Source of the DNA: a virus | Lineage: Duplodnaviria; Caudoviricetes | Virus record (IMG/VR): IMGVR_UViG_3300045285_000084 | Coordinates: 1-38,724 of that record | Direction: 5' to 3' (one strand) | Length of the DNA stretch: 38,724 bases | Shown here: positions 1 through 38,572 of the stretch, in pieces | How positions within the stretch are numbered: the first letter of the stretch is position 1 | How the letters are laid out: every line of letters begins with the position of its first letter | The notes under the pieces: generated by a model | Told to the model about the DNA's origin: nothing | The model's input: only the letters and a program-made list of their open reading frames with translations | The model's database searches: none | Position numbers and translations under genes: made by a program

Positions 1-152
1 AGATCTTTAGGTATACTGAAAACCATTATGTCTGACCAAATAGCTAAAACCCCCGCCAAAACTCAGAGAGAGATTGACTTGCGTAGATGCATCGGCGCAT
101 TACGTGAGGCTCATAACTTTTTGATGCGAGAGTTAAAAGAGCTTAGACATGA
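1..152 (+). repeat. Terminal direct repeat, copy 1 (circularity overlap)
   Basis: Identical to 38573-38724 except C127 vs A38699. Confidence 0.97.
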
Positions 153-225
153 AAAAACCCCTGAGACCGAAGTCTCAGAGGTCTTAGACACTGTTAACCA
201 AGGGGTTAACAGTGAAAGCAAATAA
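28..225 (+). CDS. Hypothetical protein (65 aa)
   Basis: ATG ORF that continues the + strand operon across the circle junction. Confidence 0.6.
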   Translation: MSDQIAKTPAKTQREIDLRRCIGALREAHNFLMRELKELRHEKTPETEVSEVLDTVNQGVNSESK

Positions 226-327
226 CGCGTACACCCTGAAATCGTCCACGAAACTTTTTCAGCGTACTAAATTAGACGGCCCAATACGTTTAATTTATCA
301 CTTCTTTACCTTTCTCTCAAGGGTAAA

Positions 328-365
328 AAACCGTCTTGACGGTTTCAGGGTGTGCGCTTTATTAA
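328..365 (+). promoter_or_regulatory. Palindromic operator overlapping a putative -35 upstream of the replication gene
   Basis: AAACCGTC-TT-GACGGTTT (328-345) is a perfect 8-2-8 inverted repeat containing TTGACG (336-341); weak -10 (TTATTA/TATTAA) 17-18 nt downstream. Confidence 0.5.
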
Positions 366-398
366 GTTTCAAATCGAACTTATTAAGGGCTCACCAAA

Positions 399-1361
399 AT
401 GACTGCTACCTTTCGCAAAAAACACGCTCACTTTTTGACCAAGTCGCAGACCCACGGCAACGCCTTAGTCTTTGACCTCAACCTTACACCCGAAGCTTTA
501 AGACTAATTTTAGCACTCAACTCATTTCCAGAGACTTGGGAAATCCGGCAGGATGACGTAGCTTTTCGTTTAGGTTTCAATCGCAAGAAAATGCGCAAGG
601 CGATGGATTGCGCCGAAGCTGCTGGTTATCTGAAAGTTACACAAACAAGAAAGGATAGAGCGCGGTATGGTTCTAACGTTTTTGAGTTCGATATCGAGCC
701 TTCTTTCTCAGAAAATAAATGCCCTCAGGATATATTTGAGCCGATGGTCGAAAATGGGCAACCGGCCCACAATGAATGTGGACCGTTGGTCGATTTACGG
801 CCAACCGTGTTACGGCCGGCCGTAAATGGAGCACTAAGTGTTCTTTCTATGAGTTCTAGTGTTTCTTGTTTAGAAGAACAAACAAACCCGGACGGCCAAA
901 ATGAAGACGAGCCGACCGAAAGGAGAGAGCGAGAGTTGTTTGTTTGTTCTCTTTCGAAAGAGCAAGAAAAGAGGGCGGCGCTAGTCGAGGTCTACGACCT
1001 CTCTATTGCGGGGATAAAGCGCATTATCAAATTCTCTGCCGAACAGATAACTCAAGGTGTAGCAGGTTATGAGCAGTGGGCCAAAAATCGAGAGGTTGAA
1101 AGCGTAGAGGCTTCTTTATGCTCATTCGTAGAGAGAGGTTGGAAGCCTAATAAAGACCCTGTCGAGCAGATAACTTTAAACCTTCAATTTTTAGAGACTC
1201 TTAGAGAATTTGACCTTACGCCTATGGGACCGGCTATGATTGTTGTAGGCCCGACTTATATTGAGTTCGCTGCTGGAAGTAAATGTAAACAATTTAGCGT
1301 CAATGATTCTAAGTTTATCCCAGAAGTAAAAGAATATATTCAAAAATTAAAGGCGGCTTAA
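399..1361 (+). CDS. Phage replication initiator-like protein (N-terminal winged HTH)
   Basis: LTPEALRLILALNSFPETWEIRQDDVAFRLG...MDCAEAAGYLKV is a typical initiator wHTH; Pro-periodic linker over repeated DNA. Confidence 0.65.
   Translation: MTATFRKKHAHFLTKSQTHGNALVFDLNLTPEALRLILALNSFPETWEIRQDDVAFRLGFNRKKMRKAMDCAEAAGYLKVTQTRKDRARYGSNVFEFDIEPSFSENKCPQDIFEPMVENGQPAHNECGPLVDLRPTVLRPAVNGALSVLSMSSSVSCLEEQTNPDGQNEDEPTERRERELFVCSLSKEQEKRAALVEVYDLSIAGIKRIIKFSAEQITQGVAGYEQWAKNREVESVEASLCSFVERGWKPNKDPVEQITLNLQFLETLREFDLTPMGPAMIVVGPTYIEFAAGSKCKQFSVNDSKFIPEVKEYIQKLKAA
741..950. repeat. Iteron-like repeats; candidate replication origin inside the initiator gene
   Basis: TTACGGCC at 795 and 810; 16-bp palindrome TTACGGCCGGCCGTAA at 810-825; CCGATGGTCGA(741)/CCGTTGGTCGA(783); AT-rich tract; 13-bp inverted repeat at 875-887/938-950. 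Confidence 0.5.
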
Positions 1362-1363
1362 CC

Positions 1364-1639
1364 GTGGACCCATTCGAGCGCAACTTCAAGCTGCCCCATA
1401 GCTATGTCACGGTTGATACGATTGACCTAGGCAATAGCGCTCAGGACGTGATAGACGTTTTGCAAAGCGTAGACGACTTCTATGCTCTGTTCAGTGAAAA
1501 AAGCGCCATAGGACCGTTTAAGAGCAAAGAGCAGTTACTTAAGCACGTCATTTTGAGGATGGCTGAAAACTCTGAGCGCCTTATAAGCGCAGTTAAGAAA
1601 ATCGAAGACACGATAAACTCTTTATACTCAGTAAAATAG
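1364..1639 (+). CDS. Hypothetical protein
   Basis: GTG-start ORF tightly packed in the operon. Confidence 0.65.
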   Translation: MDPFERNFKLPHSYVTVDTIDLGNSAQDVIDVLQSVDDFYALFSEKSAIGPFKSKEQLLKHVILRMAENSERLISAVKKIEDTINSLYSVK

Positions 1640-1641
1640 AG

Positions 1642-36619: not shown

Positions 36620-36629
36620 ATTTGCTATT

Positions 36630-36812
36630 TTACGCAAACCAGTTTAGCATATATGCCACGCCAGTGCCAAGACCTGATAGCCATGCCACGGGTATCAGAT
36701 AGACGCAGCGGCCGTATTCGTCACCGAGTGTGGGCTCTTTTCGACGAGGCGCCCATGCTTGGCTTTCTTTGCTACCCTCATAGGGCAAGCTGTCAATTAT
36801 TCTATGTCTCAT
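36630..36812 (-). CDS. Small protein with C-terminal TM
   Basis: AAGGA RBS; CVYLIPVAWLSGLGTGVAYMLNWFA. Confidence 0.55.
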   Translation of the reverse strand: MRHRIIDSLPYEGSKESQAWAPRRKEPTLGDEYGRCVYLIPVAWLSGLGTGVAYMLNWFA

Positions 36813-36959
36813 ATAGTCCTTTAGTTTAAGTGTACGCTTTTTGCATACGTTTGACTTACTGCCTCATTTAAAGACATGCGTTATTTTTAGCACAAGCAAA
36901 ATATGCTTAGCTAAAAAATACACGATCCTTTAAATTGTTTGTCATAACAGAGAGGTTTT

Positions 36960-37214
36960 ATGGAGCTGAGAGACTATCTTCACGTTAAAAGGCTTAAAGT
37001 CAATGAGTTCGCCCGCATTATTCGTTTTGACCGCAATTATGTGAGTTCAATGAAATACGGCAAGCTCAAGCCTGGCGAGAAATTTATAAGGTCCGTTGAG
37101 GAGGCTACGCAAGGCGAGGTATCCGAAAAAGACCTCTTACAGACATACTACGACTATCAAAAGACTAAGCGGTGTGCTTGTTGTGAACAATCCCACATAA
37201 TACAAACCGATTAA
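36960..37214 (+). CDS. Cro-like HTH regulator
   Basis: MELRDYL...VNEFARII...YVSSMKYGKLKPG...VEEATQGEVS; first gene of the divergent rightward operon; GAGG RBS. Confidence 0.8.
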   Translation: MELRDYLHVKRLKVNEFARIIRFDRNYVSSMKYGKLKPGEKFIRSVEEATQGEVSEKDLLQTYYDYQKTKRCACCEQSHIIQTD

Positions 37215-37259
37215 AACGACAAAGTTCAGAAAGCGCGAAAAAAAGGTGTAAGTGTCTAT

Positions 37260-37868
37260 ATGTCAAGGAAGGAATTCGAGATTACGCATAAGGATTATAT
37301 CGAGTATAGAGAAAAATACCTAGCTCGACAAGCCGTCAAAACCGCTTTGAAAAGAGGAGTATTGAAAAAAGCTGAGGCGTGCGAACTTTGCGACGCTGTT
37401 GGCAATATCGAGGCTCACCATATTGACTATAGCAAACCGTTGCTCGTTTTCTGGCTATGCGATTCATGTCACGGCCAAGCCCACAGGAAAGGCCACGCGC
37501 TAAACCCGGCCAATCATGAACGCGAGCCTTGTCGCGCTGAGTGGGGACCGCATAGCAGTGCTTATGTGGCGTCTAGCATTTCATGCGAGCATTTTATACA
37601 CCTCAAGCGCATCGCAGTTGAGAATAATACTACGGTTTCCGCTCTTATCAGAGCAGCTATTATTGAAAAGTATCCCGTTAAATCTAAGCAGATTGACTTT
37701 TTAAGTGATGAATATGAAAGACAAAAAAATAAGAGAAAAAACCCACTCTCGAGAGTATCGGGCTTGGTCGAGGATGAAAACCATTTGCTACAATTCAAAA
37801 GCGGCATCCTTCAAGAGCTATGGCGCTCGCGGTATCCGTGTCTGCCGGGAATGGAAAAATACTTTTGA
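37260..37868 (+). CDS. HNH endonuclease-like domain fused to a ribbon-helix-helix-like domain
   Basis: CELC...EAHHIDYSKPLLVFWLCDSCHGQAH; then HLKRIAVENNTTVSALIRAAI. Confidence 0.7.
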   Translation: MSRKEFEITHKDYIEYREKYLARQAVKTALKRGVLKKAEACELCDAVGNIEAHHIDYSKPLLVFWLCDSCHGQAHRKGHALNPANHEREPCRAEWGPHSSAYVASSISCEHFIHLKRIAVENNTTVSALIRAAIIEKYPVKSKQIDFLSDEYERQKNKRKNPLSRVSGLVEDENHLLQFKSGILQELWRSRYPCLPGMEKYF

Positions 37869-38229
37869 GATTTTTCTGACTGACATGGGCGCCATGCCAG
37901 AGGATTGCACCGGCATCGAGCTGATTAACCCGCAGGCGGACTTTTGCAAGCTTAATTGCAGGTGGGTAGGTCCGACTACGCGGCGCAAGCTTAGCGAGAT
38001 AAGGCAGCTAGGCGGTCGTCGCAAGCGCAAGCCCGGCGAGCCGTATAAAAGCGCGTCTATCACGGTTAAGTTGGAAGAGCAGCATTTGATCTATCTGAAA
38101 AAGCTAGCTGGCATTAGAAGCCAGAAGCTGGCATGCCGCTACAGCGTTAATGCGATGATTCGCAAATGCATAGAGGAAAATATGCCCTACCCTAAAAACA
38201 TGGATATGCTTGGAGGCGATCCCAAATGA
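37705..38229 (+). CDS. Degenerate HNH homing-endonuclease-like domain fused to an RHH-like domain
   Basis: EYRAWSRMKTICYN...SYGARGIRVCREW...FLTDMG...NCRW; then SITVKLEEQHLIYLKKLA...SVNAMIRKCI. Confidence 0.7.
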   Translation: MMNMKDKKIREKTHSREYRAWSRMKTICYNSKAASFKSYGARGIRVCREWKNTFEIFLTDMGAMPEDCTGIELINPQADFCKLNCRWVGPTTRRKLSEIRQLGGRRKRKPGEPYKSASITVKLEEQHLIYLKKLAGIRSQKLACRYSVNAMIRKCIEENMPYPKNMDMLGGDPK

Positions 38230-38555
38230 GAGACAAAAACGCTTTATTTGAGTGCCCCTATATAAAAATAGGCGAGCTGATGGACGAGTTCGAGGGGCTC
38301 TATTTTCAAGCAAAAGACGCGTGGCTGGATGAAAAATCAGCCATAATGCCAGTGTGTTGCCTTATGCATGACGCGCTAGCCAAGCTGATTGAGGCCACTG
38401 ATATCATGGTCGAGGAAATAAAGGAAAGCCACGCTTTGATACCCAAAGGGATAGCAAAGAAAAAACCGGCTAACGCTTCAAAATCAGCGGACAAAAAATT
38501 AAAAAGTTGCTTAAATGGCAAAATATTAAAATCGCGTAAAGAGCTGACAGTATAA
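38226..38555 (+). CDS. Hypothetical protein with basic C-terminus
   Basis: GGAGG RBS; ATGA overlap with the upstream gene. Confidence 0.65.
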   Translation: MRDKNALFECPYIKIGELMDEFEGLYFQAKDAWLDEKSAIMPVCCLMHDALAKLIEATDIMVEEIKESHALIPKGIAKKKPANASKSADKKLKSCLNGKILKSRKELTV

Positions 38556-38572
38556 TTATCTCGCTGTCTATT

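Follow-up and report, generated by a model that had tools for sequence, protein, structure and literature searches.

A family of contractile-tailed phage genomes that very likely infects environmental Chlamydiota

The stretch of DNA analysed here (the window; 38,724 nucleotides, positions 1 to 38,724 of IMG/VR virus record IMGVR_UViG_3300045285_000084) is, as judged from its genes, the genome of a myophage and a member of a large environmental family of ~40-kb phages. This family very likely consists of tailed phages infecting environmental Chlamydiota, and there is high confidence that the window phage itself infects an environmental chlamydia, likely without integrating; such chlamydiae live within amoebae or other eukaryotic cells. 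A chlamydial host had been proposed in an initial annotation of the window from a small set of gene-level clues, and it is supported here by stronger evidence than those clues: the relatives resident in genomes and plasmids are chlamydial and chlamydial CRISPR spacers match the family, the opposite of the concentration in a free-living lineage that the same annotation had named as grounds for abandoning the idea.

As assembled, the window is a 38,572-bp circular unit genome. Its ends overlap by 152 nt (1..152 recurring at 38573-38724, 99% identity, spacing 38,572) and the joint between end and start is spanned by a 38,602-bp contig of soil-metagenome run X1, which may be the source sample; the genome is therefore considered circular. 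A second run, X2, contains a small share, and no RNA run is listed as containing it. The IMG/VR class of the record is linear, 93% complete. Gene scans against Pfam and PHROG covered 68 open reading frames (ORFs) of the window and recovered the complete contractile-tailed gene set that had been claimed, comprising terminase, portal, protease, capsid, neck, sheath, tube, tape measure, hub, spike and wedge. The HK97-type capsid, portal and terminase genes place the genome in Caudoviricetes, and the sheath, tube, baseplate hub, spike and wedge genes indicate a myovirus morphotype, as a statement about genes rather than particles.

Relatives of the capsid protein number 667 at E values up to 1e-20; among the 120 listed, 119 have 55-87% identity and many lie on contigs of ~40 kb. 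The best match among 50,697 annotated phage records has a capsid identity of 38%. When 185,579 prokaryote genomes were scanned with a capsid alignment, 48 loci matched the patterns and 12 of these were confirmed: five are titled Chlamydiota, five more lie in genomes drawn from the phylum of a Parachlamydiaceae genome, and two are unplaced, one of them titled Verrucomicrobia. Within the phylum draw, the capsid gene is present in 12 of 401 genomes, 11 of which form one clade while G294 is more distant. The contig concerned (G294:C2; L234, L235) is a 39-kb distant myophage contig binned as Chlamydiota, with a capsid identity of 44% and 18 genes in common; its link to that bin is putative.

A resident relative is also found among plasmids. 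Of the 72,556 searched, a closed plasmid from Criblamydia sequanensis, which is in culture, ranks first for both the large terminase subunit, TerL (60%; next full-length match 36%), and the capsid (57%; next 32%). This plasmid (NZ_LK031773.1; L212, L213) matches 36 of 67 window proteins at E<1e-5 and 31-72% identity with their order conserved, and these matches include 26 of the 27 genes from terL to the end of the tail, plus 10 others. Of the virion genes, 22 were tested, and every one is open on the Criblamydia plasmid, with a nonsynonymous rate (dN) lower than the synonymous rate (dS) in 66 of 66 pairwise comparisons; the lone stop flag, in terL of G001, came from a match that began upstream of the 449-aa ORF. 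The virion modules on chlamydial plasmids, to judge from these comparisons, are intact, maintained and under purifying selection.

The plasmid relatives carry ParA, a DnaB-like primase-helicase, a pgp6-like gene and an integrase. The pgp names given to their genes are in part those of PMC7846284. Four of the 13 contigs checked close as circles of 70-96 kb, and one copy of the module lies inside a 350-kb contig amid genes that have, by eye, a chromosomal look. By gene content, the chlamydial relatives are phage-plasmids, in which a circular replicon and a plasmid backbone are combined with an intact virion module. The window is not one of these, given that it has no plasmid replication or partition backbone. 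The phage-plasmids of 70-98 kb (NZ_LK031773.1; G002:C12, G003:C52, G008:C4, G012:C1, G010:C2) consist of a ~40-kb core and of metal-resistance, AbiE toxin-antitoxin and metabolic cargo, and are roughly twice as large as free genomes bearing the same capsid. In the Criblamydia plasmid the phage and backbone genes sum to ~40.6 kb of 89.5 kb, which equals the size of a free genome, and the capsid protein is of the same length.

CRISPR spacers provide a second line of evidence. Cas1 was found above cut-off in at least 18 of 400 Chlamydiota genomes; this tally is a floor, as are those given below for two other proteins, since G017 was left unscored. Twenty regions and some extensions in chlamydial genomes yielded 399 unique spacers, and a seeded search of these against 1.08 Mb of free family DNA returned 1, 2, 2 and 4 matching spacers at up to 3, 5, 6 and 7 mismatches respectively, for which 20 dinucleotide shuffles of the same search gave means of 0, 0, 0.05 and 0.35. 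Two more matches, with 7 mismatches each, came from other searches, making six in total from four genomes. Two adjacent spacers of G316 match terL of G410 (3/33 mismatches) and the capsid gene of L295 (5/33), and spacers of G264, G365 and G076 match a RecT, a capsid and a wedge gene with 7 mismatches and 8-10 identical residues. The flanks at these last three targets are consistent with type I-C and I-F protospacer adjacent motifs (PAMs). The matched terL, capsid, RecT and wedge sequences code for peptides that are nearly identical. The G316 contig has a mutS-to-priA block, of which an unnamed gene matches five of five chlamydial genomes and adjoins priA in four of the five, and the G264 array stands on a 3.9-Mb contig with an OMP6-like match. 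Chlamydial spacers thus match family members above chance. In the window itself the best match, by the G316 terL spacer, lies within terL (10978..11010, plus strand) with 6/33 mismatches and 10/10 residues identical; the next has 9, and shuffles give 9-10. A search of IMG/VR for an exact target of the 22-nt part of this best spacer returned 0 matches. The spacer evidence therefore bears on the family and does not amount to a direct match to the window.

The careful capsid tree, for which 40 of 211 rows were selected, sets the family apart from the remaining rows by a branch with 100/99 support. The subclade of the window (100/100) includes three spacer-matched members, and the other subclade (95/93) contains the phage-plasmids and two further spacer-matched members. 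Given that chlamydial anchors lie on both sides of the basal split of the family, parsimony suggests a chlamydial host for the window lineage. Quick trees of head and tail concatenates nest the plasmid clade among free phages and group the window with G410, G432, G413 and L292; a placement of the window as sister of the phage-plasmids was not recovered in the quick tail tree. In its baseplate and fibre genes the window is as close to the phage-plasmids as it is to any free member that has a complete tail set.

None of the four clues put forward in the initial annotation is diagnostic singly. The Hc1-like and F-box proteins are real and are not specific to chlamydiae, and the Inc-like label fails. 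The Hc1-like protein (36219-36521, minus strand) lies in a slot upstream of the exonuclease in which the phage-plasmids and some free members also have an Hc1-like homologue. Its homology to chlamydial Hc1 is borne out by the family profile (96% probability, E 2e-9), for which the window protein alone gives 56%; a Pfam Hc1 search with the window protein alone gave no match, and its syntenic homologues match Pfam Hc1 below cut-off (E 0.0005-0.056 in three of four). It resembles chlamydial Hc1/HctA (PF07432) in the N-terminal helical domain only, the basic Lys/Ala-rich DNA-binding tail being absent. A feature search of the atlas returned nothing at or above 0.9, with a mostly viral cluster (14% Hc1, under the naming bar) as top structural row. 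The value claimed for Hc1 as a marker of the phylum did not stand, given that Hc1 was also found in a Bacteroides control.

The coiled-coil protein with a transmembrane (TM) segment, ascribed to environmental chlamydiae on the strength of a terminal motif (33335-33610, minus strand), is present with one TM segment. Its family is mainly viral (260 IMG/VR matches; atlas clusters 68-100% viral; at least 8 of 400 Chlamydiota genomes), and it was rejected as a chlamydial chromosomal marker; among the 37 family and outgroup records it occurs in 3. In G381:C3, a chlamydial contig of 998 kb, the motif family is present as two tandem copies at ~89,260-89,680 (L198, L206, L238), and the surroundings contain no other homologue of window genes. 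The F-box protein (6754-7224) is genuine, if weak, at E 5e-4, under the cut-off; 8 of 9 aligned members of its family match F-box-like at E up to 0.01 (best 8e-7), and the sequence has an N-terminal F-box motif. Inc proteins have a bilobed hydrophobic domain of at least 40 aa, and the two products proposed as Inc-like (6158-6757 and 7237-7746) have a single hydrophobic stretch of ~25-30 aa each. The absence of a peptidoglycan hydrolase was as claimed among the 68 window ORFs, and a Pfam search of 124 further ORFs (at least 90 aa) from six near-complete members recognised no wall hydrolase either.

A number of observations weigh against a chlamydial host. The genome scan relied on two peptide patterns and may miss divergent prophages, and the genome-resident copies are a single clade of 77-96% DNA identity and are hence counted as one capture event. 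Four of the six spacer matches have 7 mismatches and are singly near shuffle level, and one of these, from a third G316 spacer, is weak and lacks a PAM that fits. The contig that carries the G365 array, of 11.5 kb, is of putative chlamydial origin, and the spacer set came from chlamydial genomes only. No spacer among the 399 lies within 3 mismatches of the window, nor at 0-2, and the flank at the window target reads TAT, whereas two other type I-E matches read AAT. The window lineage sits on a long branch, with 55-66% capsid identity to every anchored relative, which weakens the parsimony argument. With the window F-box protein as query, no homologue was found in 300 Chlamydiota genomes other than one weak match with stops. 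A full sacculus is described for Protochlamydia in the accessible part of PMC5814848, so that a missing endolysin is not diagnostic of a chlamydial host. Every step of the life cycle proposed below is extrapolated from what was observed, namely the gene content, the membership of the family, the residence of relatives in chlamydiae and the enrichment of spacers.

Three alternatives were considered in the light of these points. The one that survives best retains the chlamydial host and differs in lifestyle only: the window may be a temperate genome that is kept as a small episome by a system that escaped recognition. Its Cro-like regulator, Phd-like antitoxin and O-like initiator, together with the existence of relatives as plasmids, favour this scenario, which is nevertheless considered rather unlikely, given that the integrase, ParA, DnaB-like and pgp6-like genes of the plasmid have no match in the window or in 11 other free members and that, in the metagenome scan, family matches outside the plasmid clade lie on contigs of at most 44.4 kb. 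Alternatively, the family may have several hosts, the window lineage infecting some other protist-associated or soil bacterium such as a member of Legionellales, Rickettsiales or Babelota, or a free-living member of the Planctomycetes-Verrucomicrobia-Chlamydiae group. The long branch and the want of a close spacer match would fit this, F-box cargo would suit any intracellular host, the Hc1 domain is not specific to chlamydiae and two of the 12 genome matches are unplaced, one bearing the submitter's title Verrucomicrobia. This is improbable for three reasons: first, no genome, plasmid or phage record among those scanned is a confirmed non-chlamydial carrier of the family; second, spacer-matched members fall inside the subclade of the window; third, its baseplate and fibre genes are as near to those of the phage-plasmids as to those of free members. 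Lastly, a binning artefact or a dead relic might account for the chlamydial link, plasmids having taken up phage DNA once and free phages never having infected chlamydiae. Most anchors are metagenome bins, and entire phage contigs are indeed found in bins of this kind (G294:C2, G260:C19). This reading is nevertheless highly implausible, given that the module is on the closed plasmid of a cultured isolate with intact genes and dN < dS, that one copy lies within the 350-kb contig and that one spacer match comes from a 3.9-Mb chromosome contig. Infection of an environmental chlamydia by the window phage is thus strongly favoured, the host of this exact genome being read from its relatives.

The remaining features of the window are arranged in a long rightward part and a leftward early arm. 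On the plus strand, replication initiator-like genes (399..1956; HTH_36 / lambda-O-like, PHROG E 5e-8 and 4e-4), with no polymerase or helicase recognised in the ORF scans, are followed by two unnamed core genes (3156-3647 and 3821-4105) present in most free members tested and in five of five phage-plasmids tested. A 680-aa tailspike-like protein (4112..6154) has, in a structure model, a beta-helix and a C-terminal lectin-like domain. The model has a predicted local distance difference test score (pLDDT) of 76.5 and its best matches among solved structures are phage tailspikes, with a whole-chain template modelling score of just 0.2-0.3; a single-sequence fold, at pLDDT 34, was unusable. Homologues of the C-terminal domain are found in one phage-plasmid and in the podovirus-like group described below, and the product is predicted to be a receptor-binding or glycan-cutting protein. 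The variable cargo cassette (6158..7746) encodes the coiled-coil and TM protein, the F-box and TM protein and a further TM protein, and its three genes co-occur only in the close relative L002 (91-93%). It is followed by a Holliday-junction resolvase (DUF1064; 8148..8627) and by the small and large terminase subunits (9569..11441). In two other members (L053:1134-3593, L052:47-3620), ParB-N, TET-associated glycosyltransferase and TET/JBP genes precede the terminase, a position at which further members have a DNA methylase; this cassette likely serves DNA base modification.

The head module (11438..16983; portal, MuF, protease/scaffold, cement and major capsid) belongs to Pam3/E217-like families, and the neck, terminator, contractile sheath, tube, tail chaperone and 340-aa tape measure genes follow (16994..23520). 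The tail chaperone gene has a T-TTT-TTC heptamer at 22245-22251 with the -1 frame open into 22275-22544, likely a programmed frameshift. Each of the baseplate and short tail-fibre genes (23520..30760) has a homologue on the Criblamydia plasmid (41-72%), and downstream of them neither holin nor endolysin was found; the PHROG 'endolysin' label on 23520-24164 was rejected in favour of a Dit-like baseplate protein (Pfam E 8e-32). A domain of ~90 aa recurs, at 28-51% identity, in the cement (15228-16037), head-tail (18289-18951) and sheath (19498-21414) proteins and twice in baseplate J (26521-28521). On the minus strand lie a RecT-like annealase with a conserved neighbour (30888..32308), a Phd/YefM antitoxin-like gene (33607..33819; Pfam above cut-off), for which no toxin partner was recognised, and a PD-(D/E)XK exonuclease (35594..36292). 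A Cro-like regulator and two conserved HNH/DNA-binding genes occupy 36960..38229 on the plus strand. A 65-nt direct repeat (82%; 34076-34140 and 34800-34864) covers the starts of two leftward early genes and is possibly a repeated early promoter unit, and a promoter scan of 30500-38724 found 19 where 14.8 were expected. The sole rightward ORF within the leftward arm (34954-35310) encodes a Pro/Ser-rich product with a Cys-rich and hydrophobic C-terminus, for which no family or homologue turned up. A search of the window for tRNA genes found none, and no integrase, polymerase, holin or endolysin was recognised among the scanned ORFs.

The motif protein of the window is also borne by a second, larger group of phages, mostly of 35-41 kb (L092-L168, L242/L254 on G260:C19, L240/L255 on G400:C145), some of which also carry the tailspike C-terminal domain or RecT. 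The portal and capsid family differs in the scanned members (45 ORFs in four records), for which no sheath match was obtained, and the group is probably podovirus-like. In 1.3 Mb of motif-protein phages, a limit of 7 mismatches gives 15 matching spacers out of the 399 chlamydial ones and a limit of 6 gives 8, as against means of 0.67 and 0.08 in 12 controls.

Among known systems, the plasmid of Criblamydia sequanensis CRIB-18 (NZ_LK031773.1) is the nearest, sharing with the window the gene order through head, tail and baseplate as well as the exonuclease, RecT, resolvase and Hc1-like slot; at 38.6 kb as opposed to 89.5 kb, the window is without the pgp backbone and the metal-resistance cargo. 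Pam3/E217-like myophages and Chaseviridae (e.g. Erwinia phage Fifi44, NC_079174.1) have the same Pfam families for cement, capsid, plug, hub, spike and chaperone. The window differs from them in a capsid of at most 38% identity and in having no DNA polymerase, no RNA polymerase such as marks Chaseviridae and no holin-endolysin, and so falls outside both Chaseviridae and the PB1-E217 phages. Fifi44, a cultured phage of the same capsid family, has a holin and endolysin after its tail genes and a gene of ~1,250 aa in the tape-measure slot, compared with 340 aa in the window. Members of Chlamydiamicrovirus are tailless with single-stranded DNA. The window is unrelated to them, having double-stranded DNA, a tail and an HK97-type head. 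Its probable host, an obligate intracellular chlamydia, is what it would share with these Microviridae of Chlamydiaceae (accessible part of PMC5010888).

Tailed-phage genes in chlamydiae are not entirely new. PMC4208316 gives 7% of Criblamydia plasmid proteins as 'of phagic origin', and the accessible part of PMC7846284 notes a 'phage group' on the plasmids of Criblamydia and Protochlamydia massiliensis, calls it a 'putative prophage' and infers transfer of prophage and of whole plasmids. Neither PMC4208316 nor that part of PMC7846284 describes a complete myophage or free relatives. The novelty claimed in the initial annotation thus holds for free phages: no description of free tailed phages of chlamydiae was found in the open-licence literature, although the Criblamydia plasmid may already be entered among phage-plasmids in supplements of PMC7969092 or PMC8242063, and the family of free tailed phages is on that basis taken to be undescribed. 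In the accessible parts of PMC5010888, PMC5583166 and PMC8242063, knowledge of chlamydia phages is 'very limited', comprising microviruses and, for amoeba symbionts, sporadic reports only, and chlamydial CRISPR spacers match no known virus.

Taken with a chlamydial host, the gene content suggests the following life cycle. Short fibres and a tailspike that binds glycans would attach the virions to the chlamydial surface, with extracellular elementary bodies as the most plausible site, and the virions would then be carried into the protist host. Injection by the contractile tail may be followed by replication in dividing reticulate bodies, for which the O-like initiator, a host polymerase and exonuclease/RecT/resolvase recombination would suffice, with headful packaging from concatemers. 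Escape may proceed without a classical endolysin, as a thin or absent wall would permit. By interfering with the nucleoid condensation that Hc1 drives, the tail-less Hc1 could keep the cell in its replicative stage, and the eukaryotic cell could be the target of the F-box and TM cargo. A single lineage within the family would have fused with a chlamydial pgp plasmid backbone, persisting as the 70-98-kb phage-plasmids and sometimes integrated. A tailed phage of such a host has to get at a bacterium within a eukaryotic cell and to deal with a two-stage cycle and a reduced wall, so that its genes for entry and lysis and its Hc1-like gene are probably unusual.

The family provides targets for chlamydial spacers and an origin for the plasmid 'phage group', and the question is testable in culture since cultured Criblamydia sequanensis carries an intact virion module. 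On balance, with confidence somewhat above even, it is suggested that environmental chlamydiae host a large and hitherto undescribed virome of tailed double-stranded DNA phages, made up of ~40-kb myophages (more than 100 capsid clusters, without recognisable endolysin and with an Hc1 mimic and eukaryote-targeted cargo) and a larger podovirus-like group, in which the 70-98-kb plasmids are inducible phage-plasmids packaged in pieces by ~40-kb heads. Packaging in pieces would follow from a head sized for ~40 kb, unless the head is larger, and, if true, would give isolated chlamydiae a route of transduction. Criblamydiaceae plasmids are without a conjugation operon, according to the accessible part of PMC5010888, and particle-mediated spread would explain how, in the absence of such an operon, whole plasmids were transferred between chlamydial families (PMC7846284, accessible part).

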